The notes: a model not told the origin generated them from the letters alone. A DNA stretch of 64,000 bases from Negativicutes bacterium (GCA_963665275.2 CAXXIN010000016.1:256001-320000), one strand, 5' to 3'; shown: positions 1-18,465, counted from the stretch's first letter. Program-made: numbers and translations.

Positions 1-4
1 TACT

Positions 5-238
5 GTGGAACGAACACATGGGATACAGTTCGAAATACGTTCAAAAGAGCAAGGACACAATGTTCCTCATTGCCATGCTTGTTATGGGAATCAGAACGTC
101 TCCATATCGCTTCTCGATTTTTCAATATTAGCAGGAAATATTCCGTCGCAGAAGGCAAAATTTGCAGCGCGTTGGGTAAGAGATAACATTGATATCCTAA
201 AACCATACTGGAACAAATATCACGCATTGGAAGTATAG
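5..238 (+). CDS. DUF4160-family protein (HicA/DhiT-like small protein), probably 5'-truncated by the window edge
   Basis: Motif EQGHNVPHCHACYG...GNIP...WV...W is typical of DUF4160; frame is open back to position 2. Confidence 0.75.
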   Translation: MERTHGIQFEIRSKEQGHNVPHCHACYGNQNVSISLLDFSILAGNIPSQKAKFAARWVRDNIDILKPYWNKYHALEV

Positions 239-424
239 ATACGAAGTGTTTTCCTCAAACCAGAACTAAAACTGAAATAAGAGGAGACTGCTTAACCCAA
301 CTTTTGGAATTAATATTCTGAGTGTGCAGGAGTCTAGCCGTTAAAGCATAATATAAGCTATGAAGTAATATTTTGTGAAGCATTAAAGCTGTTAATGTAA
401 ATTTATGTAAGATAAGGAGTTTGC

Positions 425-2591
425 ATGAGCCAAAAGACACGACTGTTGATTCTAATCCTCTACATGGGTATTTTGTTGGCAGCGAACTCCATTGCATTTC
501 ACCAGATATTGCCGATCAATGGAGCCAAGGGATTATGGTTTTACTCTGGATTCGCAAGCCTGCTGTTGGGAAACTTGCTTGTAACTCCATATTTCACCAA
601 ACCTGTAGACGCGATATCATATGCGGTCGTTGCCATGATTGCTCTTTATTCCGTGAATGATTGGGACAAATGGATTTGGGTAGATCAGTTTGTATTCAGT
701 GCCGTGATGCTATTCTCTCTTGCAGTTGCCGTCATTGGATTTATTACTATACTTACAAAAGACAACGAAACACATAGAGGCCGGGAGTGGTCAAATACTT
801 TCCGGATTATATCTGATTTTATTGGCAATGAAACGGTTGTTTTTAGCAGCATAATACTTTTTGCGTTGATCGTTTTTCATCGACAATCAGCTTTGGAAAT
901 GTTTGTTATAACTATGGCTTGGGTAATAACAGTTATAATAAAACCAGACCGACATTTTGGAGAATTGTTTGATCGATTAAAAAAAATATGGCAAGATACA
1001 TTTTCTTCTGACATTATTGGAGATGTTGCGGCATACCAAACCCCAAACATTGCTCTAGTTCGGCAACGCAGCAATAATTCAGTGCAGTTTGGAGAAGCGG
1101 TAATTTTTCGCGATCCACATGCACCAACAAAGGTCGGAGTAGCACTAGACTATGTTGGACGTGATGAATCGTTATTGCTACGCACTATGGTATTCGACGT
1201 TCCCGATTCCTGTAGCGAAACGGTTTCGGTTGCATGCAAATTAATCCCGGAAAATACCATGGGACGTTGTGCTCAACTGCTTTCAAATTCTACAGTTAGA
1301 GAATCGATACCAATCTTTAACCAATTACAGGATTTTGTTGGAATTGTTACAACGGAAACGTCGATTGATACCCTTTATTTTGAAGTAGTAAAAGAGGCAA
1401 ATCTCGAAGAGGGTAAGTTAGTTCAAGTTTCTATTAAGGGGAGAACCGGTACTCTATCAGGTTATTGAAGGGTTTACCAAAGAAGAGGTCGTTTTCCAGA
1501 AAAACACATTTGGTTTTGCTCGTGCCAAAGCGCAAAAAATCGGTGCATGGGATGAACGCGAAAAGAAATTCAATCCAGCTAAATGGATTCCAAGTATTAA
1601 TGCGCCGGTTTTTTTGAGAAGCATGGAAACGCGTGAAATCGATATTGCAGCAATAGGACATTTCCCTGGATCAAGTTACAATGTCCGAATCAAGAGTGTT
1701 AGCCATTTGGTTACGCACAACACCGCAATTTTAGGAATTTTAGGCGTCGGAAAATCTATGTTATCCATCGAGCTGGTGGAAAGAATGATTGCCGAGGATG
1801 TTAAGGTAATTTGTTTAGATCTAACCAATCAATATGCACAAGAACTAGTTGATTTCTATGACGCAACAGGTGAAGAAGAGAAGGAAAGAAACCTTGACAC
1901 CATAGGAATGGCAGGGGAGCGTGCAGTTAATCAAAACGTAGAAAACGGAGGTAGCATAAAACAATTTGCTGCTGCAATCGAATTAGATCTTAGGGAATTT
2001 ATCCTGGAATCTCCCAACACGTTGAAAATATATAATCCTGCTAGGTTCACTGTGTGGCGTCAAAGTGGCGGACTTTACCAAGGAAATGCGGCTATGGCGA
2101 GCCTGACTCCCACAGAAATCACCAAGATAGTATCTGAAGCGGCTTTGAAAATTGCTCAAGACTTGGGAATGACAGATAGAGCACGGATATGCTTAGTGTA
2201 TGAAGAGGCACATTCTTTAGTGCCCGAATGGAATTCTGTTGCAGCCGATGGTGATCGTGCAGCTACGAATGGTACTGCCAGAGCCATATTGCAAGGACGC
2301 AAATATGGGCTTGGTTGTTTATTAATAACACAACGAACTGCTAACGTAACGAAAACAATTTTAAATCAATGCAATACGATATTTGCTATGCGTACCTTTG
2401 ATGAAACTGGGAAGGATTTTTTGGCTAATTATATTGGGAACAATTACTCCAGCGTTTTGTCTTCTTTACAAGAGCGACACGCTGTGTTTTTTGGAAAAGC
2501 ATCAAGTTGTGATAATCCAGTTCTTATAAGGCTCAATGACAGAGGCGATTTTATAAGAGTTTTTCGGAAATCCAAGTCTCCTAACTATTAA
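425..2591 (+). pseudogene. Membrane-anchored HerA/DUF87 ATPase (about 721 aa if repaired), frameshifted near 1438-1441
   Basis: ORF 425-1468 has about 6 hydrophobic segments plus a beta-rich region. The downstream frame is stop-free from 1422 to 2591 and has Walker A GILGVGKS, Walker B LVYEEAH, QGRKYG and TQR. Removing one G from the GGGG run gives continuous ...VSIKGEPVLYQVIEG... Confidence 0.8.
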
Positions 2592-2740
2592 CATAATTGA
2601 ATAACCAGATTAAGAATATTGGTTGGATAATTTGAAAGTGAAGACGTTTGGAGTGCAAAGGGAACATAATTTACTATGAGCACTCTTGATTGTTCAAGAT
2701 TATCAAATAAATCTCTTAAATCATTTTAAGGATGTGAACT

Positions 2741-3817
2741 ATGGATAAGCAATCATCCATAATCGGGCTCTCAATTGTTTTGAACCGTGGTTTGAAAACA
2801 GAGCAAGAAACTGCATGTTTTGAAAATGTAACTCATGATATTTTGGTTGAAGGAATAAAGGAATATCTTTTACTTCATGCTAATTTGTTAGGAGACATGC
2901 ATATCGAAACATCTCAGGCATTGAATGATCATGGCGTGGATTTGATCTTAACGTCAAATCAAGTATGTAAAATTGGCATTCAAGTAAAAAGTCACTTTGA
3001 CGTTTCTGAAAAAGATTTTGCTACAAAAGTTAAACGTCAATATGCAGAATCTTTGGCACATGGTTTGGATAAATGGTATTTATTGATCTGTGCTCCTATG
3101 AAATCTGGGAAAAATGATTTTTCCGGAAAAATTAATCATCTTATAAATGAATTGAGCATGTTTAAAACCAAATATCACTGCGTTTTTGGCCCCCAATATA
3201 CTGCTGAAATTTACAAGAATTTTCAACCTATGAGCATAGATGAATTTAATTATTCATTACAAAAATACTCTTATGCGCAAACTGATATTGAAGCAATAAA
3301 AGAACTTATAAAAAATAATTTAAATTCAAGCCCAAAGGAGAATAGGGATAATTTTTCTTATAACGTAGATCCCTACAAGGCCATTGCACCTCAAAGTTGT
3401 AATGGAATTAATAAGGTTTTAGATTGGGGAAATTCAGAAGAAGAACTTAAGTGTGCAAAAAAGGATTTTATTGTATTATTAAATGTTTTGCAAAAAATTC
3501 CATTAAATACAAGGAAGTTCCTATCAATGGCGATAGAAAAGGCTGTTTTAAAGGGTGATAATCTGCATGCTTTAATATTTGAAATTCGTAATTCATGCAA
3601 TATTAGCGAAAAAGAATTTAGCGATCATGCGAAGTTACTTGAAAAATATCGGCTTATGGAACTAGATGGTGATGATTATGACTACATATTCATAAACAAT
3701 GGATCAATTAGGTGGCCCATTATGAAGGATTTAATAGTTTTTGCGGAAAGACAACATATTCCGATTGATCAAATAATTGTATGTTTAAATTTTGGTTTTC
3801 TAGACAAAATACAATAG
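2741..3817 (+). CDS. Putative PD-(D/E)XK (Mrr-like) nuclease-domain protein with a helical/wHTH-like C-terminus
   Basis: N-terminal motif NDHGVDLIL...IGIQVKS (D...QxK); AT-rich; C-terminal IFEIRNSCNISEKEFSDHAKLLEKY resembles an HTH. Confidence 0.55.
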   Translation: MDKQSSIIGLSIVLNRGLKTEQETACFENVTHDILVEGIKEYLLLHANLLGDMHIETSQALNDHGVDLILTSNQVCKIGIQVKSHFDVSEKDFATKVKRQYAESLAHGLDKWYLLICAPMKSGKNDFSGKINHLINELSMFKTKYHCVFGPQYTAEIYKNFQPMSIDEFNYSLQKYSYAQTDIEAIKELIKNNLNSSPKENRDNFSYNVDPYKAIAPQSCNGINKVLDWGNSEEELKCAKKDFIVLLNVLQKIPLNTRKFLSMAIEKAVLKGDNLHALIFEIRNSCNISEKEFSDHAKLLEKYRLMELDGDDYDYIFINNGSIRWPIMKDLIVFAERQHIPIDQIIVCLNFGFLDKIQ

Positions 3818-4004
3818 CCCCAGTGGGGTCGCATCATGTTATCAAACTTCTCAGTGTCCATTCGACTGTCAATGCTAGTCAACTTCATAGAAGGTTGCCG
3901 AAAAGCCCCAAAATTAAGCTTATAATCTGTTTGCGGTCTATGAATCCGATGATTTGAAAATGAGCAATTTTTGAACTGTCTGGGTGTTTATCTGGGTATA
4001 GACA

Positions 4005-4039
4005 GAAAAAAGGCTTCCGACGAAATCGTCGGAAGCCTT
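4005..4039 (-). terminator. Intrinsic terminator downstream of tRNA-Val
   Basis: aaggcttccgacg-aaat-cgtcggaagcctt perfect stem followed by a T-run on the minus strand. Confidence 0.85.
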
Positions 4040-4048
4040 GATTTACCT

Positions 4049-4123
4049 TGGTGGGGCATACTGGTTTCGAACCAGTGACCTCTTGAATGTGAGTCAAGCG
4101 CTCTCCCCCTGAGCTAATGCCCC
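4049..4123 (-). tRNA. tRNA-Val (anticodon CAC)
   Basis: Reverse complement GGGGCATTAGCTCAGGGGGAGAGCGCTTGACTCACATTCAAGAGGTCACTGGTTCGAAACCAGTATGCCCCACCA: 7-bp acceptor stem, CTTGA/TCAAG anticodon stem with CAC, GTTCGAA T-loop, encoded CCA. Confidence 0.97.
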
Positions 4124-4667: not shown

Positions 4668-6275
4668 CTACCAGGCCGCCACAGCGCCGTCGGTGCGGGG
4701 CTCGGTACCTCCTGCGAGTACTCCGTTCTTATCACGCCAAATGATCTGACCCCGTCCCATGGACAAATTGCCAACGGAGCGCTGAATGTTGTGTCCTTTG
4801 CGTTCCAAGGCTTCTGCGATGAATTCGGGGAACAGGTGCTCCACCTCGACGGTTTTGTCTTTTGTCCACTGCCAGCGGGGCGCATCGAGGGAGGCTTGCG
4901 GGTTGAGGGCGAAGTCCACGGTGTTCATGACCATCTGCAGATGCCCCTGCGGTTGGACGAAGGCGCCCATGACGCCGAAAGGCCCGACGGCTTGGCCGTC
5001 CTTCGACAGGAATCCGGGAATGATCGTGTGATAGGGCTTCTTGCCGGGAGCGAGCACGTTGGCATGGGCCGGGTCCAGTGAAAAATTGCAGCCACGATTG
5101 TGCAGGGCAATGCCGGTGCCGGGAACGACGAGACCGGAGCCGAAGCCCATATAGTTGCTCTGAATGTAGGAAACCATATTTCCTTCACCATCAGCCGTTG
5201 CCAGGTAGACCGTGCCGCCTTTGGACGGCGAACCGGCGATCGGTGAGAGCGCCTGAGCGCCGATGAGTTTGCGGCGTTCGGCGGCGTAAGCGTCGGAGAG
5301 CAGGTCTTCCACGCTGGCCTTCATCTGCCGCGCATCAGTGATATATTTCATGCCGTCGGCAAACGCCAGCTTGATGGCTTCGATTTGCCTGTGGTAGGTT
5401 TCGACGCTTTCCTTGGTTTCGAACTCCATCCCCTTCAGGATGTTCAGGGCGAGGAGTGTGACCAGGCCATGACCGTTGGGCGGGATCTCCCAGACATCAT
5501 AGCCGCGATAATTCACCCGGATCGGCTCGACCCATTCGGGCTTGTAGGCTGCCAGGTCTGAGGCGCGGAGCCAGCCGCCATGCTCTTTAGCAAATGCGTC
5601 GATTTTTTCTGCGAGGTCGCCTTGGTAAAAATCTTGAGCGTTGCTGGCTGCGATCATTCGCAAGGTTGAAGCGTGGTTAGGAGAGCGCCACAATTCTCCG
5701 GCAACAGGCGCATGCCCATCGGGTGCAAAAGTATCGAACCAATGATGAAATTCCGGGCCGGTGGCGGCGCTGAAACGTTTGAACCCCAGCTGCCATTGTC
5801 TGCTGATGACCGGCGATACCGGATAACCGGTCTCGGCGTATTCGATGGCCGGGGCCAGAACCTCCGCGAGGGTCAGCTTGCCGAAGCGGGATACGAGTTC
5901 AGCCCAAGCGGCTGGAGTGCCGGGAACGGTGACAGGCAGCCAGCCGTTGGTTGGCAGTTGTTCTTTGCATCCGTGGCTGAGAGCGGTATCGAGCGTGAGA
6001 GCCATTGGGGCCGGGCCACTGGAATTCAGGCCGTAGAGGCGGTCTTTCATCCAGACGAGAGCGAACGCATCGCCGCCAATCCCGTTAGAAGTGGGCTCGA
6101 CGACGGTGAGGCAGGCGGCGGTGGCTACAGCTGCATCGACGGCGTTGCCTCCCTGTCGCAGGATGGATAGGCCCGCTTGTGCGGCTAGAGACTGCGACGT
6201 CGCAACCATGCCGTTTTTTGCATAGACCGTGCTGCGGCGCGACGGGTAAGGGTTGTATAAAGCATCATAATTCAT
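4668..6275 (-). CDS. ggt: Gamma-glutamyltransferase family (YwrD-like, cytoplasmic)
   Basis: GGNAVDAA, EPTSNGIGGD, catalytic Thr in GGTVYLATAD, PYHTIIPG; RBS AAGGAGG before ATG at 6275. Confidence 0.92.
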   Translation of the reverse strand: MNYDALYNPYPSRRSTVYAKNGMVATSQSLAAQAGLSILRQGGNAVDAAVATAACLTVVEPTSNGIGGDAFALVWMKDRLYGLNSSGPAPMALTLDTALSHGCKEQLPTNGWLPVTVPGTPAAWAELVSRFGKLTLAEVLAPAIEYAETGYPVSPVISRQWQLGFKRFSAATGPEFHHWFDTFAPDGHAPVAGELWRSPNHASTLRMIAASNAQDFYQGDLAEKIDAFAKEHGGWLRASDLAAYKPEWVEPIRVNYRGYDVWEIPPNGHGLVTLLALNILKGMEFETKESVETYHRQIEAIKLAFADGMKYITDARQMKASVEDLLSDAYAAERRKLIGAQALSPIAGSPSKGGTVYLATADGEGNMVSYIQSNYMGFGSGLVVPGTGIALHNRGCNFSLDPAHANVLAPGKKPYHTIIPGFLSKDGQAVGPFGVMGAFVQPQGHLQMVMNTVDFALNPQASLDAPRWQWTKDKTVEVEHLFPEFIAEALERKGHNIQRSVGNLSMGRGQIIWRDKNGVLAGGTEPRTDGAVAAW

Positions 6276-6415
6276 GGGGAACCCCTCCTTGCTTTTCACT
6301 CAATACAGTAACATTAGAAGGGGCTTTTTTCAATATGACTTGATTTATTGCACCTCAATGTGTAATCTTGATATATCGTAGCATCGGAGCAAACAAAGGA
6401 GTTGTAGTTGTTACC

Positions 6416-6772
6416 ATGAAAGAAACTTGGAAGTATGTCGGGGTAGGACTCGGCATCGGAGTGCTCAGCGGGTTGCTCGGGGTTGGCGGCGGGATCTTTT
6501 TGGTTCCCATCCTGACCTCTTATTTTGCGGTTGACCAGCATCTGGCGCATGGAACGTCGCTGGCCGTCGTTGTTCCCACAGCCATCATGGGAGCGACTGT
6601 TTATAGCTATCATGGGACGATGGATGTGCCGCTGGCGGCGCAATTGGCGGTCGGGGGCGTGATCGGGGCAGCAATCGGCGCCCGGGTGATGAAGAAAATT
6701 CCGGCGGCGCAGCTCAAGCGGATGTTCGGGGTCATGCTGATCCTGGTGGGCATAAGGATGGTGCTGGCATGA
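6416..6772 (+). CDS. TauE/SafE (TSUP) family half-size membrane protein
   Basis: GVLSGLLGVGGG..LVP, DQHLAHGTSL motifs; only one repeat (about 118 aa). Confidence 0.88.
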   Translation: MKETWKYVGVGLGIGVLSGLLGVGGGIFLVPILTSYFAVDQHLAHGTSLAVVVPTAIMGATVYSYHGTMDVPLAAQLAVGGVIGAAIGARVMKKIPAAQLKRMFGVMLILVGIRMVLA

Positions 6773-7134
6773 ACGAGATGCTGATGATTCTGGCAATGGG
6801 TCTTTCCACGGGGGTTCTTAGCGGGGTGCTGGGCGTGGGCGGCGGAGTTGTCCTGGTTCCCATGATGGTGTTTTTGCTGGGAACCGAGCAGCATCTGGCC
6901 CAGGGGGTTTCGATGTTGTTCATCATTCCGACTGCATTATCCGGTCTCTATCATTTGGTCAAATGCAAACTGGTGGATTTCCGAGTGGCAATATTTATCG
7001 CCGCCGGAGCGCTGGTCGGCACTTTGATCAGCGCCAATTTTGTCCAATACATTGCAGCTGCCGATCTGAAAAAAATGTTCGGCGCTTTCGTCATTTATTC
7101 GGGTATTCGGATGGTTATGCCCAAGAAAAAATAG
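6769..7134 (+). CDS. TauE/SafE (TSUP) family half-size membrane protein
   Basis: GVLSGVLGVGGGVVLVP, EQHLAQGVS; ATGA overlap with the previous gene. Confidence 0.88.
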   Translation: MNEMLMILAMGLSTGVLSGVLGVGGGVVLVPMMVFLLGTEQHLAQGVSMLFIIPTALSGLYHLVKCKLVDFRVAIFIAAGALVGTLISANFVQYIAAADLKKMFGAFVIYSGIRMVMPKKK

Positions 7135-7156: not shown

Positions 7157-9541
7157 ATGAAAAAAATACAACTGGCTGACGGCGCCATGGGGACGATGCT
7201 CCAGAGAATGGGGCTCGCACCTGGTGAATCGCCGGACTCTTGGGCTATACGAAATCCTGAAGCTATTTTGGCGGTGCACCGCGCTTATGTGGAGGCCGGC
7301 GCGGAGATGCTGACTTCCTGCACCTTTGGCGCTAATCGCATCAAACTTTCACATTACGGACTGGAAAAAGAAGTATTTGCGCTGAATGCCGCAGCGGTCA
7401 AAATCGCGCGGCAGGCAGGCGGTGATAAGGCGCGTGTAGGCGGGAATCTGGGACCAACAGGCAAACTAATTCGGCCTCTGGGCGAACTGTCATTTGATGC
7501 TGTTTTCGATGTTTATGCCGAGCAGGTAACGGCGCTGACGGAAGCCGGAGTGGACTATTTTATCATTCAGACGATGATCGACATTCAGGAAATGCGGGCG
7601 GCGCTCCTAGCGGCGAAGCAATACGGACGGGCGCCGGTCATTTGTCAGATGACGTTCGAAGCGTCGGGGCGGACGGTAACCGGAACCGACCCGGCGACGG
7701 CGGCAGTTACGCTGGAGGCGCTGGGTGCAGATATGATCGGCGCGAATTGTTCCCTGGGGCCTGATCAACTGCTGCCTGTTATCGAGAAGATGGTGGCGGC
7801 CACGTCGCTGCCTGTGACGTTGCGCCCCAATGCCGGGATGCCTGTGTTGCAGGAAGGTCGGACGATCTTCCCGCTCAGTCCTGAGCAGTTCGCAGCCTGG
7901 GCGCCGCGGATCGTGGATGCGGGCGTGACGGCGATCGGTGGTTGCTGCGGCACGACGCCGGCTCATATTGCAGCGGTGCGGGATGCCTTGCGGGGACTGA
8001 AGCCCATAGATGTTGCTTCGTCGTTGCGAGATGCGCACTGCCTGACCAGTCGTTCCAGCACTGTATATTTCGGCGCCGGATTCCCCATACGGATCATCGG
8101 CGAGAGAATCAATCCTACCGGACGCAAGGCGATGGCAGCCGAACTGCGCGAAGGGAACCTGACGACCGTCAAACGGGACGCGTTGGCGCAGCAGGAAGCA
8201 GGAGCCTCGATTCTGGATGTTAACGCCGGAGTGCCGGGGATCGATCAACCAGCGCTGATGGTGCGGTTAGTGGAGGAACTCTCCCAACTGGTGACGCTGC
8301 CGCTGTCGATCGACACGACCGATCCGGATACGTTGGAAGCAGGATTGCGGATTTATCCCGGCCGTGCGCTGGTCAATTCGGTGTCAGCGGAACCGGAGCG
8401 TCTGGAAAGATTCCTGCCGATTGCCAAAAAATATGGCGCGGCTGTATTGTGCCTGCCGCTGGCGCCTGGCGGTTTGCCGGCGAATGCGCGGGAGCGGGTG
8501 GATACGGTCCGCCGGATCATTGATGCAGCCATGGCGATGGGGTTCCGTCGCAAGGATCTGCTGCTCGATGCTCTCACCACGACTTTGGCGGCCAATCCGG
8601 TCGCTGCATTGGATGTGTTGGAGACTCTTCGCCTTTACGGGGCGGAGCTGGGATTGCCTGTTTCGATGGGCCTCAGCAATGTTTCGCATGGCTTGCCGCG
8701 ACGCGACCTGATGAATTCGCAGTTTTTCGCCATGGCGGCGGCGCAGGGCATGAGCATACCGATTCTCAACCCGCTCGATCCGATGATGAATGATGCGATC
8801 AGCGCCGTGCAGGCACTGCTCGGCAACGACCGGCAGGGACTGGCATACAGCAAACGATTTGCGGCGCAAGGACCGCAGGTATCGGCGCAGGCCAGCACTG
8901 CAACAGTCGCAGCGTCCCCGGTCGACCAATTGCGGCAGGCGGTACTGCAGGGCGAAAAAGAAGCCGTCAAAGGATTCGTCATGGCGGCGATTGCCGAAGG
9001 GCGTGATGCGGCCTATATCATCGACAACGGCCTGACGGCTGCGATGAACCGCCTGGGTGAGGATTTCGGCACTGGCCGCTGCTTCCTGCCGCAGGTGTTG
9101 CTGGCGGCAGAGGCGTTGAAACAAGGATTCCAAGTGCTCCGCGCTGCGCTGCCGGCAGAGAAAACCGAATCTCTGGGCAAAGTCATGCTGGCGACGGTGG
9201 CGGGAGATATTCATGATCTGGGGAAAAACATCGTTGCAGCGCTGCTGGAAAACAACGGTTTCGAGATCATCGACCTCGGCAAGGATGTGCCGGTGGAAAG
9301 AATCGTGGCGGCGGCGCGTGAGCACCAGCCTGATGTTGTTGGTCTGTGCGCCCTGATGACGACGACTTTGCCGCAGATCGACCGCAGCATTGCCGCATTG
9401 AAGGCGGCGGGGATTGCTGTCCGGACGATGGTGGGCGGCGCTGTGTTGACGGCGGAATATGCCAAGAAAGCCGGCGCGGATGTATATGCACCGGATGCGG
9501 TGGTGGCTGTAGCTTTAGCAAAGGGACTCGTGAACCGTTAA
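7157..9541 (+). CDS. metH: Cobalamin-dependent methionine synthase, short form (Hcy + pterin + B12 domains, no reactivation domain)
   Basis: DGAMGT, GANCSLGP, GGCCGT, IIGERINPTG, DIHDLGKNIV. Confidence 0.92.
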   Translation: MKKIQLADGAMGTMLQRMGLAPGESPDSWAIRNPEAILAVHRAYVEAGAEMLTSCTFGANRIKLSHYGLEKEVFALNAAAVKIARQAGGDKARVGGNLGPTGKLIRPLGELSFDAVFDVYAEQVTALTEAGVDYFIIQTMIDIQEMRAALLAAKQYGRAPVICQMTFEASGRTVTGTDPATAAVTLEALGADMIGANCSLGPDQLLPVIEKMVAATSLPVTLRPNAGMPVLQEGRTIFPLSPEQFAAWAPRIVDAGVTAIGGCCGTTPAHIAAVRDALRGLKPIDVASSLRDAHCLTSRSSTVYFGAGFPIRIIGERINPTGRKAMAAELREGNLTTVKRDALAQQEAGASILDVNAGVPGIDQPALMVRLVEELSQLVTLPLSIDTTDPDTLEAGLRIYPGRALVNSVSAEPERLERFLPIAKKYGAAVLCLPLAPGGLPANARERVDTVRRIIDAAMAMGFRRKDLLLDALTTTLAANPVAALDVLETLRLYGAELGLPVSMGLSNVSHGLPRRDLMNSQFFAMAAAQGMSIPILNPLDPMMNDAISAVQALLGNDRQGLAYSKRFAAQGPQVSAQASTATVAASPVDQLRQAVLQGEKEAVKGFVMAAIAEGRDAAYIIDNGLTAAMNRLGEDFGTGRCFLPQVLLAAEALKQGFQVLRAALPAEKTESLGKVMLATVAGDIHDLGKNIVAALLENNGFEIIDLGKDVPVERIVAAAREHQPDVVGLCALMTTTLPQIDRSIAALKAAGIAVRTMVGGAVLTAEYAKKAGADVYAPDAVVAVALAKGLVNR

Positions 9542-9575
9542 CAAATTAATCTGACCCAAGAACTTTTCAAAACAG

Positions 9576-9622
9576 GAAGAGGCTGCAACATTCCGCAAAA
9601 GTCAGAGTGTTGTAGCCTCTTT
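9576..9622 (+). terminator. Hairpin/terminator after metH
   Basis: aagaggctgcaaca...tgttgtagcctctt inverted repeat. Confidence 0.65.
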
Positions 9623-9725
9623 GATTGAATCTGATTCGTGTTCGCAGGATAGCAGGAATTAATTTCGATCACGTGGAATATTCGTGGGATAATAATGAAA
9701 ATTTCGAATAAAAGGATGTTGCAGG

Positions 9726-10490
9726 ATGGTATTCTTTTTCATGAACCTTGTCACGATTTCCGTATTGTCGGTAGCGGCCGTATTCCTGATGCTGTGGCTG
9801 CGGCGGCGGATCGGAACGGAATCGTTGCGACGCAACCATGAAGTAGCCGGCGTCGTATATTCGGTAGTCGGGGCGATATTTGCCGTGACAGTGGCGTTGA
9901 TCGTCGACACGGTGCACGATGAATACATCCTTGCTGACAAAAATGCCGCAACCGAGGCTGTGCAGGTTGCCGGCCTGTATCAACTGGCCGAATGGTTTCC
10001 TGGCGCCGGGGAAATCCGTCTGAAGGGTCAATTGAAACAATATGCACAGATCGTCGTTGAGAAAGAATGGAAACATGCGCTGAAGAATAGGGCAACAGAA
10101 CCAGCGCTGCCTGAAGCTGAGCGGGCTTTTCATGAAGTGTCGAACTCCGTACGAATGCTGGAACCCTTGACGTTGCAGCAACAGGCGGCTTATGGAGAAG
10201 CGGTTCAACGACTGACTGGGCTGCGGGAAGCACGTTACTATCGATTGCATGGGAAACGATCTGACCTGCCGTTCCCGCTGTTGTTTGCTGTCGTTTTCGG
10301 CGGCGTTGTCACGATCGGCTTTGCCATGTTCTTTTCAATGGACAGTTCGCGAGCCCAGATGGCGATGATCTTTTTTTTGTCAGCTCTGATTTGGAGCAAT
10401 GTCCTGGTGATTTCTCAGGTTCAATACCCGTTTAATGGCATCGATATCACGCCGCCGCGGGCTTTCATCGCCTGGTTGAGCAGCAATTAA
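9726..10490 (+). CDS. DUF4239/bestrophin-like membrane protein
   Basis: HEVAGVVYSVVGAIFAV, EA..LY, YAQIVVEKEW, QYPFNG motifs; 4 TM segments. Confidence 0.75.
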   Translation: MVFFFMNLVTISVLSVAAVFLMLWLRRRIGTESLRRNHEVAGVVYSVVGAIFAVTVALIVDTVHDEYILADKNAATEAVQVAGLYQLAEWFPGAGEIRLKGQLKQYAQIVVEKEWKHALKNRATEPALPEAERAFHEVSNSVRMLEPLTLQQQAAYGEAVQRLTGLREARYYRLHGKRSDLPFPLLFAVVFGGVVTIGFAMFFSMDSSRAQMAMIFFLSALIWSNVLVISQVQYPFNGIDITPPRAFIAWLSSN

Positions 10491-10497
10491 CCGGAGA

Positions 10498-11454
10498 CTA
10501 TATACCATCGCCGCAGATTCCCTTCTGAGCCTTCGGCGTGGAAAGTTCCTCCAAGTTAAAGGGCGTTCCCTGATAAACATAGTAGTTGAGCCAGTTGATG
10601 AACAGAAGGTTGGCTGCGCTGCGCCAACGAACGATTGGGGTCTGCTGCGGATCGTCATTGGGATAATAATTGGCTGGAACGTTGATCGGCGTGCCTTGCG
10701 CGATGTCGCGGTCGTATTCGGCCTTGAGCGTGAATGGATCATATTCGGAGTGCCCGGTTATGAACAGGTCCCGATATTTCTTGTCGATTACTGCATATAC
10801 GCCGGACTCCTCCGACTCCGACAGAATCGACAGGCCGGGAACTTTCTCGATATCTTCGCGACGGACTTCCGTATGGCGGGAGTGGGGGACATAGAAAATG
10901 TCGTCAAAGCCGCGAAACAGCATTTTTTCCTTCATATTTACGCGATGCGGGAATACGCCGAACATTTTTTGCGGCAAGGCGTACTTCGGGATCCCGTAAT
11001 GATGGTACAGAGCGGCCTGCGCACCCCAGCAGATGTGGAGCGTCGAGTAAACGTTGCGGCGACTCCAGTCCATGATTTCGCACAGCTCGTCCCAATACTC
11101 GACTTCTTCGAACGGGACTTGCTCCACCGGCGCGCCGGTAATGATCATGCCGTCATATTTGCGGTGCTTGAGTGAGCTGAAGGTTTCATAGAATTTGACC
11201 AGATGCTCTTGTGAAATATTCTTTGGGGCGTAGGTTTCTGTATACATGAAGTCGAATTCCACCTGCAACGGTGAATTTCCCAGCAAGCGCAGCAATTGGG
11301 TTTCCGTGGCTATTTTCGTCGGCATCAGATTCAGCAGCAATATTCGCAGAGGGCGAATGTCCTGTGAATAGGCGCGGTCCTCGTCCATGGCGAAAATGTT
11401 CTCTTGTTCCAGCGTGTGAACGGCTGGCAAATTGTTAGGAATCTTAATCGGCAT
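10498..11454 (-). CDS. metA: Homoserine O-acyltransferase MetA (probably acetyl-specific)
   Basis: MPIKIP, LNLMP, ITGAPVE (Glu at the specificity position), ICWGAQA, GHSEYD. Confidence 0.95.
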
Positions 11455-16639: not shown

Positions 16640-17521
16640 CTAATTTTTCAATTTCGGGTCAAGCGCATCACGCAGCCCATCACCAAGTAAGTTAAGGCCG
16701 AAAACAGTGATCATGATCGCCATGCCGGGGAAAACCGTCATAAACCAATAGTTCCGGATGAACGACCTGCCGCCGGATAACATCGCCCCCCACTCAGGGA
16801 CTGGCGGCTGTATTCCCAACCCGATAAAGCTGAGGGCGGCCGCGACGATGATGGCCGTAGCGACACCCAAGGTGCTCTGGACAATCAACGGAGCTAAACA
16901 ATTTGGCAGAATGTGCTTGAATATGATTCGGAGGTCACTTGAGCCAACCGCACGAGCAGCTTCCACAAATTCATAGTCGCGGATGGTCAAGACTGACGCA
17001 TGAACAATTCTCGCATAGCGCGGAATCGATGAAATCCCAACTGCGATCATGAGGTTGACTAAGCCCGGCCCCAGCGCGGCGACGATGGATATCGCCAACA
17101 AAATCGAAGGGATGGATAAGAGGATATCCATGGAACGCATGATCAATTGATCCAGCTTGCCGCCATAGTAACCGGCAATCGCGCCGAGAAAGCCCCCGAT
17201 AATAATGGAAATCCCGACGGAAAGAAAGCCGACCTCCAGCGAAATTCGGGCCCCATAGACTATTCGGCTAAAAATATCGCGGCCAAAATCATCGGTTCCA
17301 AACAAATGTTTAATACTAGGATATTGAAACGTCTCCTTGAGGTTTTGCTGGGCATAGGGATAGGGCGCAATAAATTCAGCAAAAATTGCAGTAACAAACA
17401 ACAAACCGATGATCACCAAACCGCACATGGCCATTTTGCTTCTTTTCAACCGACGCCACGTGACAAACAGCTGGCTTTGCTTCTTGGGGATTTTTTCAAC
17501 TATATCGCTTTGAGAACTCAC
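16640..17521 (-). CDS. Oligopeptide ABC transporter permease (OppC/DppC)
   Basis: LFGTDDFGRDIFSR, EFVEAARAVG; likely GTG start at 17521. Confidence 0.9.
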   Translation of the reverse strand: MSSQSDIVEKIPKKQSQLFVTWRRLKRSKMAMCGLVIIGLLFVTAIFAEFIAPYPYAQQNLKETFQYPSIKHLFGTDDFGRDIFSRIVYGARISLEVGFLSVGISIIIGGFLGAIAGYYGGKLDQLIMRSMDILLSIPSILLAISIVAALGPGLVNLMIAVGISSIPRYARIVHASVLTIRDYEFVEAARAVGSSDLRIIFKHILPNCLAPLIVQSTLGVATAIIVAAALSFIGLGIQPPVPEWGAMLSGGRSFIRNYWFMTVFPGMAIMITVFGLNLLGDGLRDALDPKLKN

Positions 17522-17534
17522 CTGATTCACCCCG

Positions 17535-18465
17535 TTATTTATATTGAGATCGAATTCGCGGATTGACATACGCATACAGCAAATCGACGATGAGGTTAAT
17601 CACACAGAATGCAATGGCAATGACCAAAACTCCCCCTTGAACGATGGGGAAGTCCCGCATTTTTATCGCTTCGACCATTAACCTCCCCAGCCCCGGAATC
17701 GAAAAAATCGTTTCCGTCAGAACCGCGCCACCTAACAAGCTGCCGAATTGAAGGCCGACCACCGTGATGATAGGGACCAGTGCATTGCCTAACGCATGCC
17801 GCAGAATGATGACCGACTCGGTCTGCCCTTTGGCGCGGACCGTTCGGATATAGTCCTGCCGAATCACTTCCAGCATGCTGGACCGGGTCATTCTCGCAAT
17901 AATCGCCGTCGATAGACCGCCGAGAGCGATCATGGGCATGATCATTTGATCGATGCGGTCATAACCGGAAGCAGGCAACCAATTGAGCTGAACTGTAAAG
18001 AGTAGAATGAGCAATAGGCCCAGCCAGAAAATCGGCATGGAAGTTCCGATAAGCGCCAGAATCATCGCCACAGTATCAATGAGCGAATACGGTTTAATTG
18101 CAGAGATGATGCCGGCGGGAATCCCGATGACCATGGAGAAAATCACAGCCGTTGGTCGCCAATTTCATCGTGATGAAGAAGGCAGGGATTATTTCATTGA
18201 GAACCGGGCTGTTGCTGATATACGAACGTCCGATGTCTTGAAAAAGAATCAGGTTTTTCAAGAAAGTCGCGTATTGCACGATAAAGGGTTGATCCAATCC
18301 CATTTCCTGCCGCAATAGCAGGACTTGATCCGGGCTGGCCTGCGTACCCAAAATCAAGGCGGCAGGATCGCCTGGCGTCAGATAAAGCATGGTAAAAACG
18401 ATGAAAGTGACTCCCAAGATAACGGGTACTAAAAAAAGAATGCGGCGAAAAACATATTTTAGCAT
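17535..18465 (-). pseudogene. Oligopeptide ABC transporter permease (OppB/DppB) with a +1 frameshift near 18152
   Basis: N-half MLKYVFRR...PGDPA...GLDQP and C-half ...RMTRSSMLEV...DYIRTVRAKG lie in different frames; deleting one base gives ...MKLATTAVIFSMVIG... Confidence 0.85.

Follow-up and report, generated by a model that had tools for sequence, protein, structure and literature searches.

The 64,000-nucleotide stretch of a Negativicutes bacterium analysed here (GCA_963665275.2 CAXXIN010000016.1:256001-320000, referred to at its full length as the window) begins with the end of an island of ~14.5 kb integrated at a tRNA-Val gene. Positions 1-4000 are AT-rich, with a G+C fraction (GC) of 0.30-0.42 compared with 0.49-0.62 beyond, and three genes on the plus strand close the island: a small DUF4160 (DhiT-like) gene, a gene for a HerA-type ATPase with an N-terminal transmembrane (TM) domain, hereafter TM-HerA, and a gene for a protein combining a PD-(D/E)XK nuclease-like domain with a winged helix, hereafter gene 3. 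The initial annotation of this DNA took the last two as a candidate defence module, in which a membrane-tethered DNA motor, or the TM domain as an abortive-infection effector, would act alone or with the nuclease. This interpretation proved half right, i.e., the TM-HerA fusion is real, conserved, unnamed and set in defence-rich neighbourhoods, whereas its pairing with the nuclease is not supported. The features of the TM-HerA gene are the following.

425-2591, plus strand: TM-HerA gene, ~721 amino acids when read through; split in the window into 425-1468 and 1614-2591
425-994, plus strand: N-terminal membrane domain, residues 1-190, from the AlphaFold model and hydropathy
1010-1625, plus strand: β-rich region, residues ~196-400, from the secondary structure of the model
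1439-1442, plus strand: GGGG run with an apparent +1 frameshift, from comparison of the reading frames
1638-2591, plus strand: RecA-like HerA ATPase domain, residues 405-718
1734-1757, plus strand: Walker A motif, GILGVGKS
2193-2213, plus strand: Walker B motif, LVYEEAH
2292-2309, plus strand: QGRKYG motif
2328-2339, plus strand: TQRT motif

The architecture of the protein was assessed in an AlphaFold model of P0002, an intact metagenomic homologue of 718 amino acids with 88% identity, based on a 37-sequence alignment (pLDDT 83.4, from the predicted local distance difference test; predicted template modelling score, pTM, 0.68). Model and hydropathy bear out the earlier description of about six TM helices within the N-terminal ~190 residues of a HerA/DUF87 ATPase: hydrophobic helices are predicted at residues ~3-25, 34-48, 60-76, 85-111, 136-151 and 156-172, and amphipathic helices at residues 117-133 and 174-190. 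The membrane domain is followed by an extra β domain (residues ~196-300, window ~1010-1325) and by a HAS-barrel-like domain (~303-400), which lies directly N-terminal to the RecA-like ATPase domain as in the fold of solved HerA proteins. The C-terminal open reading frame (ORF) matches Pfam DUF87 (PF01935) with 33.4 bits, above the cut-off of 23.2, and the same family is precomputed on nearly all TM-HerA homologues listed. The motifs GILGVGKS, YEEAH, QGRKYG and TQR noticed at the outset are present in the window, with Walker A and Walker B intact and Arg/Lys conserved after Walker B. Most residues of the four motifs do not vary across 37 family members, a few positions excepted; in P0002 numbering the invariant ATPase residues are G437, L439, G440, G442, K443, E593, E594, A595, H596, Q623-K626, G628 and Q636-T638.

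Structural comparison places the ATPase within the HerA clade. The best Foldseek matches are the SIR2/HerA complex 8wod (E 4.7e-17) and Sulfolobus HerA 4d2i (E 3.3e-16), and the matches, which include HerA-NurA and HerA-DUF4297, span E 5e-17 to 1e-12. An all-against-representatives structural search (VIA) returned 4d2i at the top (Z 22.5, root-mean-square deviation 3.5, 322 residues, model residues 303-711), with TdpAB, other defence HerAs and DndH-C next and VirB4 (Z 19.0), TrwB (16.8) and FtsK (15.9) further down. Matches to the whole 718-residue model start at about residue 295-300, and in this search neither the membrane domain nor the domain at residues 196-300 has a counterpart in solved HerA. 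A look-up of the membrane domain in the ESM Atlas gave no usable match, and the sole Pfam match of the N-terminal ORF, DUF2306 at E 0.11, was not used. A four-copy complex prediction of the membrane domain (residues 1-195) scored 0.04 against a mark of 0.42 and was counted neither way. By homology with solved HerA, TM-HerA would assemble into a hexameric ring. Because only ~5 residues separate the amphipathic helix 174-190 from the first β strand at residue 196, the end of the ring opposite the ATPase is probably placed, judging from the model, near the membrane's inner face, and a ring of ~36 helices would then be made up by the six membrane domains.

In the deposited sequence the gene is interrupted. 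The two pieces lie in frames that differ by +1, and the switch falls inside the GGGG run, which holds one extra G. The read-through product aligns with P0002 without gaps over 661 residues at 88% identity, the frame junction reads SIKGEPVLY in the window and SIKGDPVLY in P0002, and there are no further stops or indels relative to P0002. The frame was checked by comparing Logan contigs of four public runs (X1-X4; two samples, two studies) over positions 1200-1700: all four contigs (depths 3.6, 8.1, 38.5 and 2) omit one letter at 1438 and are otherwise identical over 501 bases, and run X3 represents another sample and another study. As nothing but a single omitted letter sets the contigs of all four runs apart, an indel error of this assembly most likely explains the break, the organism itself having an intact gene of ~721 residues. 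The recommended repair of the frameshift is probably unnecessary, as independent assemblies are intact. No RNA run is listed among the public runs that hold the stretch. That TM-HerA is a true pseudogene, functionless in its source organism, would accord with the frameshifted deposit and with a second island gene, encoding a metallophosphatase, that is also split between two frames; it is nevertheless highly improbable, given the intact frame in runs from two samples and the lack of additional stops or indels against an 88%-identical intact homologue, and two split genes within 15 kb fit assembly indels as well as decay.

The family to which TM-HerA belongs is large and widely scattered. A word-indexed protein search returned more than 1,353 homologue clusters; the best 120 homologues measure 660-803 residues (most 700-800), share 48-88% identity, mostly cover 97-100% of the query, and, where named at all, are called 'DUF87 domain-containing', 'helicase HerA domain-containing', 'ATP-binding protein' or 'hypothetical'. 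In a collection with one genome per species, 261 stretches encode a TM-HerA relative, the best 80 of which derive from at least 15 phyla by their record titles. By comparison, TM-HerA is found in one of 60 relatives of the source genome and in none of 11 genomes of the same genus. The combination of high conservation and patchy distribution identifies the gene as accessory and horizontally mobile. No TM-HerA match was obtained in a collection of 50,697 phage records.

When the membrane domain alone was compared with 1.84 billion representatives, 291 matches were returned, N-terminal in all. The 148 newly listed proteins comprise 48 collinear HerA proteins of full length, 85 collinear but shortened pieces, which most likely reflect contig ends, and 15 short partial matches; the membrane domain thus seems to be exclusive to the TM-HerA family. 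Conservation amounts to 0.58 for the membrane domain, 0.57 for the β-rich residues 196-400 and 0.73 for the ATPase; the segment from TM2 through the loop to TM3 (residues 34-76) reaches 0.72-0.80, matching the ATPase, and Q3, R6, T54 and H152 are invariant polar residues of the membrane domain. This level of conservation, together with the invariant polar residues in the alignment, argues that the membrane domain is more than a plain anchor.

Some members depart from the common pattern. P0152, the sole longer member at 1,273 residues, has a C-terminal extension of ~500 residues without a Pfam match, which may be a fused partner or a gene-calling artefact. One relative genome encodes two TM-HerA paralogues, in L116 (G058:C116) and L119 (G058:C103), with full-length open frames of 754 and 705 residues and 58% and 29% identity to P0002, and distant DUF87 proteins at 24-28% identity are found on Bradyrhizobium plasmids. 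The existence of divergent subfamilies follows from the paralogue at 29% and these distant plasmid-borne proteins.

Gene neighbourhoods were compared in a locus set comprising the best 80 of the 261 stretches, plus the window's own locus (81). All ORFs of the loci were called and clustered all against all, and the immediate neighbours, i.e., 138 ORFs of at least 120 amino acids within 1.5 kb, were scanned with Pfam. No neighbouring ORF of at least 70 residues is conserved: apart from shadow ORFs internal to HerA, no cluster occurs in more than 14 loci and none keeps a fixed place. Among ORFs of 25-90 residues within 700 bp of TM-HerA nothing is conserved either, other than shadow ORFs of hsd genes. 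In three loci the scanned neighbours are opposite-strand housekeeping genes, namely purA (L029, L068) or folD together with an amino-acid kinase (L063), which suggests that TM-HerA has no partner in these loci. TM-HerA is without a conserved partner gene.

What recurs instead is proximity to restriction-modification (R-M) genes of several kinds. Counted as R-M-type were Methylase_S, N6_Mtase/HsdM_N, Eco57I-type, N6_N4_Mtase and DUF1156 methylase, HsdR, and SNF2 accompanying a methylase; such genes are directly adjacent to TM-HerA in 22 of the 80 loci. The order HsdS-[TM-HerA]-HsdM, with gaps of -18 to +202 bp, is seen in L010, L024, L053 and L069, whereas TM-HerA lies between hsdS and hsdR in L045 and between an SNF2 helicase and a methylase in L009, L072 and L073. 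An Arcobacter plasmid encoding a member of 33% identity has the order HsdS-HsdM-RhuM-HsdS-hypothetical-SLATT-[TM-HerA]-RNA-binding protein-HsdR, and on an Aminobacter plasmid TM-HerA stands between AbiEi/AbiEii and two reverse-transcriptase genes. By our own reading of Pfam names, other defence-type neighbours occur in 14 further loci, from the families Mrr_cat, HNH_2/HNH_5, HEPN-NTase, TIR_2, RhuM, AbiJ, AbiGi, KAP NTPase, Shedu, SLFN, T5orf172 and ORF6N, and DarT adjoins TM-HerA in one of the R-M loci, L028. An odd pairing of defence and anti-defence is seen in L074: at the end of a type I R-M operon, TM-HerA is directly followed by an ArdA anti-restriction gene (L074:7983-8489).

For a distance control, the nearest ORF at least 5 kb from TM-HerA was taken on each side of the same loci (n = 71). 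R-M-type domains are present in 28 of the 138 adjacent ORFs and in a single distal ORF of the 71 (Fisher p = 7e-5), which is an NgoFVII/PLD nuclease in L059; since the control stays inside the same islands, it is conservative. Homologue neighbourhoods, which the initial annotation had proposed to score for defence genes, are rich in R-M and other defence genes. On a FastTree phylogeny of 75 members, at least 15 changes of state are required to explain the 19 R-M-adjacent rows, and the 10 of 200 label shuffles with values reported gave 16-19. On this basis the association has arisen many times rather than being the legacy of one clade, and the R-M associations are largely independent insertions.

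The family has no name of its own. Four full-length members searched against PADLOC-DB 2.0.0 returned only partial matches to generic HerA models, with at most 86 bits over ~120 residues, and mad8 at 4e-11. The NCBIfam models HerA_antiphage and HerA_antiphage_2 gave 45-54 bits, confined to the last ~120 residues, against cut-offs of 800 and 850, and helicase_HerA gave 32-36 bits against 970. Beyond DUF87 no Pfam family is above threshold for TM-HerA, TrwB_AAD_bind (16.6 against 20.5) and the TraG P-loop (14.5 against 25.8) both falling below. In the literature collection and with the terms searched, no description of a membrane-anchored HerA in defence was found. The TM-HerA family is accordingly unnamed and without a dedicated PADLOC or NCBIfam model, and the supposition that it represents no named system agrees with the partial or generic matches that these three resources gave.

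Comparison with characterised systems shows where TM-HerA differs. The best structural matches are the Sir2-HerA and DUF4297-HerA systems (Gao_Her / Nezha; 8wod, 8j4u, 9c1m, 8zis; Foldseek E 5e-17 to 1e-12, VIA Z 18.7-21), which share with TM-HerA the HAS-barrel, the RecA-like ATPase and a defence-island setting. However, their HerA is soluble and needs an adjacent effector gene, whereas TM-HerA is partnerless and has a six-helix membrane domain and the extra β domain fused at its N terminus; no Sir2 or DUF4297 effector gene is present among the 138 neighbours in the 80 loci or in the window island. To our knowledge, every characterised defence HerA is soluble and works through a separate effector protein. 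HerA-NurA, which functions in end resection (4d2i, 9x1m, 7f6d; Z 22.5, 17.7 and 17.1), has the same ATPase fold and motifs, but TM-HerA is membrane-anchored and accessory rather than core, occurring in one of 60 relatives, and no NurA gene is found among the 138 adjacent ORFs. The closest precedent for the way in which TM-HerA might work is Tmn (Gao_Tmn), likewise a single protein with membrane helices and an NTPase, although the NTPase is of another class (KAP/YobI family) and no sequence relation to TM-HerA is apparent in PADLOC or Pfam. In Tmn the membrane helices are inserted within the NTPase. PMC13001434 reports that the site of action of Tmn is the membrane and that a phage protein is what it senses.

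A different kind of precedent comes from embedded genes (HEC and PDC candidates; PrrC), foreign genes nested between the subunit genes of R-M, BREX and Hma systems, as is TM-HerA between R-M genes in several of its loci. In the main text of a preprint on 'guilt by embedding' (Payne et al.; 10.1101/2024.01.29.577857), seven of nine tested embedded candidates protected against phage, and 145 untested candidates are referred to its supplementary tables; the TM-HerA family might be among these 145. Neither that main text nor PADLOC-DB 2.0.0 contains a HerA/DUF87 membrane protein of the TM-HerA kind. An assignment of the window HerA as the ATPase of an Hma system was considered and rejected: the main text of the preprint holds no HerA/DUF87 term, and TM-HerA is found both alone and alongside many unrelated R-M types.

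Because TM-HerA is accessory and mobile and has been inserted many times independently into or beside R-M operons and other defence genes, single-gene defence is a likely function, and a defence role of some kind has somewhat better than even support in our judgement. That TM-HerA is an autonomous single-gene anti-phage or anti-plasmid defence, with the membrane domain as its effector, is the reading that we favour, at roughly even odds. In solved HerA complexes the partner (NurA, Sir2 or DUF4297) docks on the HAS-barrel face. The membrane domain is favoured as the effector because it and the extra β domain are fused on this partner-docking side, and it would occupy the place where Sir2, DUF4297 and NurA dock on HerA in the known systems. 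The HerA ring would sense or engage foreign DNA, or another infection cue; ATP binding or hydrolysis would then change the ring of membrane domains, which would breach or gate the membrane and so bring about abortive infection. This ATPase-gated mechanism is put forward tentatively, as one possibility that we hold with less than even confidence.

Several points weigh against this reading. In 44 of the 80 loci no defence-type gene is adjacent, by our own classification, and some neighbours are housekeeping genes; the distance control was drawn from these same loci, which lack full independence from one another. The fold comparison of the membrane domain and the extra β domain is that of the whole-model search only. 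The effector role draws on conservation and on general knowledge of docking at the HAS-barrel face, and we infer both the defence role and its mechanism. The intact frame was seen in contigs, not in reads, and these may share their sample with the assembly, X3 excepted. Lastly, one relaxase gene is located at least 5 kb from TM-HerA in L040, and among the 12 plasmid records that have a match, 5 carry a conjugative typing, mostly with distant relatives at 24-28% identity.

These plasmid and relaxase observations lead to the alternative that TM-HerA is not a defence protein but serves mobile elements or R-M operons, in DNA transfer, partition or uptake, or in R-M stabilisation or regulation. In line with such a role, typing assigns the Aminobacter plasmid to MPF_T, TM-HerA lies on islands and plasmids and in six loci (L016, L031, L038, L044, L051, L054) has recombinases, transposases or an integrase as neighbours, and the Pfam matches to TrwB_AAD_bind and the TraG P-loop, though below threshold, point in the same direction. 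However, genes for VirB4, type IV coupling proteins (T4CP), relaxase, pilus and secretion are absent among the 138 adjacent ORFs, so that the conjugation setting named in the initial annotation as a counter-indication is not seen there; moreover, no match exists in the 50,697 phage records, in both structure and sequence the HerA clade, and not T4CP, VirB4 or FtsK, gives the best matches, and the association with several unrelated R-M types (type I, IIG, SNF2 with methylase) argues against a role specific to one enzyme. We regard this alternative as rather unlikely.

The main rival to the effector reading is that TM-HerA is a membrane-tethered, non-lethal DNA pump or trap, which would seize, stall or expel DNA entering by phage injection, conjugation or transformation, and maybe pass it to a nearby nuclease or R-M enzyme. 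The HerA/FtsK superfamily consists of DNA translocases, and anchored FtsK, TrwB and VirB4 are structural neighbours of TM-HerA (Z 15.9-19): FtsK/SpoIIIE, TrwB and VirB4 are same-superfamily P-loop pumping ATPases tethered by N-terminal membrane helices. The likeness has its limits, i.e., their fold is more distant than that of HerA (Z 22.5), their Pfam families score below threshold, no division or conjugation genes are adjacent to TM-HerA, and a short spacer joins its membrane and cytoplasmic domains. TM-HerA is also often co-oriented and tightly spaced with R-M enzymes, and in 8 of the 81 loci the next co-oriented gene encodes a nuclease, from six different families: Mrr_cat (L011), HNH_2 (L019 and L042), RmuC (L073), Shedu (L079), RNase_T (L008), DUF559 (L072) and the PD-(D/E)XK protein of the window. 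Such varied nucleases fit either loose cooperation or mere co-residence. A pump or trap would be in line with the 'HerA/FtsK capture systems' feeding invader DNA to nucleases that the Aravind laboratory proposes in PMC12839542. Against it, phage DNA enters by the phage's own conduit and nothing here indicates a DNA-wide pore, the partner nuclease is not conserved, several loci have only housekeeping genes among the scanned neighbours, and the conservation of the membrane helices fits a pump or trap no better than an effector. On balance this rival is possible but unlikely.

A more specific variant, a new kind of single-protein immunity, we consider speculative and improbable. A DNA-motor hexamer would be built into the membrane, its ring of 36 helices serving as a gated conduit in line with the channel of HerA, so that a single chain is both sensor and effector; captured DNA would be pumped out, or its capture would open the pore and collapse the membrane potential, and the protein, nested in R-M operons, would act as a second line where restriction has failed.

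The gene downstream of TM-HerA encodes a protein of 358 amino acids, with the following features.

2741-3817, plus strand: gene 3, with a nuclease domain at residues ~22-167 and a winged helix at residues ~250-340, from the model and the alignment
2939-2941, plus strand: codon of D67
2981-2983, plus strand: codon of Q81
2987-2989, plus strand: codon of K83

The D...QxK nuclease motif and the possible winged helix-turn-helix (wHTH) discerned at the outset are both substantiated: N62, G65, D67, G79, Q81 and K83 are invariant in 25 aligned sequences (the window protein and 24 homologues), and the C-terminal half folds as a winged helix. In the model of gene 3 (pLDDT 85.3), D67 stands before the strand 68-72 whereas Q81 and K83 lie within the strand 76-83, which gives a D...(D/E/Q)xK motif on core β strands. 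The form '(D/E/Q)xK' is cited for NERD nucleases in the main text of 10.1101/2024.01.29.577857, and the D...QxK of gene 3 is of the same kind. Foldseek matches of the N-terminal domain are weak but coherent (EcoT38I, E 8.8e-3; SfsA, Hjc and XPF, E 0.07-0.26), and VIA matches, in the middling range of the tool, are LlaBIII (Z 8.1; N-terminal region, residues 14-175) and 1xmx (Z 7.8). Residues ~250-340 match ArsR/MarR-type winged helices at Z 8-9.6, and ArsR-type repressors in Foldseek.

Gene 3 resembles Mrr and type IV-like nucleases in having D...QxK on an α/β nuclease-like core followed by a DNA-binding winged helix. It differs from them in scoring below the cut-off of Pfam Mrr_cat (12.9 bits against 21) and in forming a small family of its own, with 28 clusters in the protein search and 30 metagenome loci, some of which hold only the N-terminal half. 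Membership of NCBIfam XopAX was rejected, the match being partial (32.7 bits against 350, residues 21-142); there is a hint that XopAX proteins possibly share the nuclease-like domain of gene 3. Relatives of gene 3 occur in varied contexts, with FRG, MksE, HEPN, SIR2-HATPase, RES, ParE, OLD-like ATPase-TOPRIM, kinase-helicase and integrase genes, and no recurrent partner is found among them. It is plausible that gene 3 is a solitary nuclease of the type IV-restriction kind.

The proposal of a two-gene defence system, in which TM-HerA acts with the downstream PD-(D/E)XK and winged-helix protein, has some initial appeal, as the window has both genes in the same orientation with 150 bp between them and known HerA systems couple the ATPase to an effector. 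Furthermore, the closest relative of gene 3, in L084 (40% identity), lies ~1 kb upstream of an SIR2_2 gene and a HerA gene, though this HerA is soluble and SIR2-paired. Relatives of gene 3 are, however, absent from all 80 TM-HerA loci, and TM-HerA is absent from all 30 loci that hold a gene 3 relative, one of which contains the soluble SIR2 and HerA pair; by this lack of co-occurrence the proposed module is largely refuted, and the gene 3 family has defence-island contexts of its own (FRG, MksE, HEPN, RES, OLD-like, ParE). We consider a joint system very doubtful. Gene 3 is not the effector of TM-HerA, and their adjacency is a chance neighbourhood within the island. In L084 the three genes are at 5980-7083, 8110-9165 and 9183-10961, and the same stretch also contains an FRG-domain gene and an AAA_15/AAA_21 ATPase; we read the gene 3 relative and the SIR2/HerA pair as two tenants of one defence island.

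The remaining features of the island and its borders are as follows.

5-238 (listed as 1..238), plus strand: 3' part of the small DUF4160 (DhiT-like) gene, from Pfam DUF4160
4010-4039, minus strand: hairpin with a perfect 13-bp stem and a T run after it, located between gene 3 and the tRNA-Val 3' end
4049-4123, minus strand: tRNA-Val gene (anticodon cac), integration target of the island, from the tRNA call
4053-4090 of the window: right copy of a 38-bp direct repeat (attachment site, att), 100% identity over 38 bases, E 1e-16 within 52 kb
L002:9554-9591: left copy of the 38-bp att repeat, 10.4 kb upstream of the window start

The 38-bp repeat is the 3' half of the tRNA-Val gene, and its two copies delimit the ~14.5 kb island. 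That this perfect repeat of the tRNA 3' half recurs 14.5 kb to the left beside a tyrosine integrase establishes the island as real, and ORFs, GC, the tRNA-Val gene and the repeat together confirm what had been described as three co-oriented AT-rich genes at the end of a tRNA-integrated island. The hairpin at 4010-4039 is probably the terminator of the tRNA-Val gene. The integrase gene (L002:8618-9481; 287 residues, short for its class) lies just outside the left repeat and not inside the island, which may reflect tandem islands at the tRNA-Val gene or a decayed integrase.

The DUF4160 ORF begins 109 bases before the window start and encodes 115 amino acids in total. It matches Pfam DUF4160 (E 3.9e-12, 46.6 bits, cut-off 23) and falls below the cut-off of the NCBIfam equivalog toxin_DhiT (45 bits against 100); a DUF2442-type partner was looked for, and no plus-strand ORF of at least 30 residues lies between 238 and 425. 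The DUF4160 gene and the PD-(D/E)XK gene are separate cargo of the tRNA-Val island and not operon partners of TM-HerA.

The rest of the island was scanned through 11 ORFs on L002, the island stretch upstream of the window. As had been remarked of the part in view, no NurA, Sir2 or methyltransferase domain is present, and this holds for the 11 island ORFs as well as for the window genes. A calcineurin-like metallophosphatase is split into two overlapping ORFs in different frames (L002:10269-10712 and L002:10705-11343), which may be a second assembly indel error like that in the HerA gene. A DJ-1/PfpI gene (L002:18876-19538) has a GC of ~0.54 within the otherwise AT-rich island, which suggests a mosaic origin. 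Two adjacent genes on the minus strand (L002:15923-17125 and 17149-18423) encode proteins of 400 and 424 residues with hydrophobic stretches by eye and no Pfam family, and the cargo also includes a DUF6765 protein (L002:12291-13379) and a 363-residue protein with a weak SAP-like match.

HerA ATPases are an emerging hub of anti-phage systems. For the source genome, the present data imply that an assembly error likely accounts for the break in TM-HerA and that the island has the three genes as separate cargo rather than as one operon-level system, which leaves TM-HerA alone, as a variant of the HerA-based systems, as the object of interest. Being nested repeatedly in operons of the type I, type IIG and SNF2-methylase kinds, it lends itself to a clean test of 'guilt by embedding', and a HerA family that is widespread, conserved, partnerless and membrane-embedded would, if defensive, be an easily testable single-gene system. 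If this is true, TM-HerA would also show a DNA motor coupled to the membrane in a new way, in a poorly understood area of phage defence.

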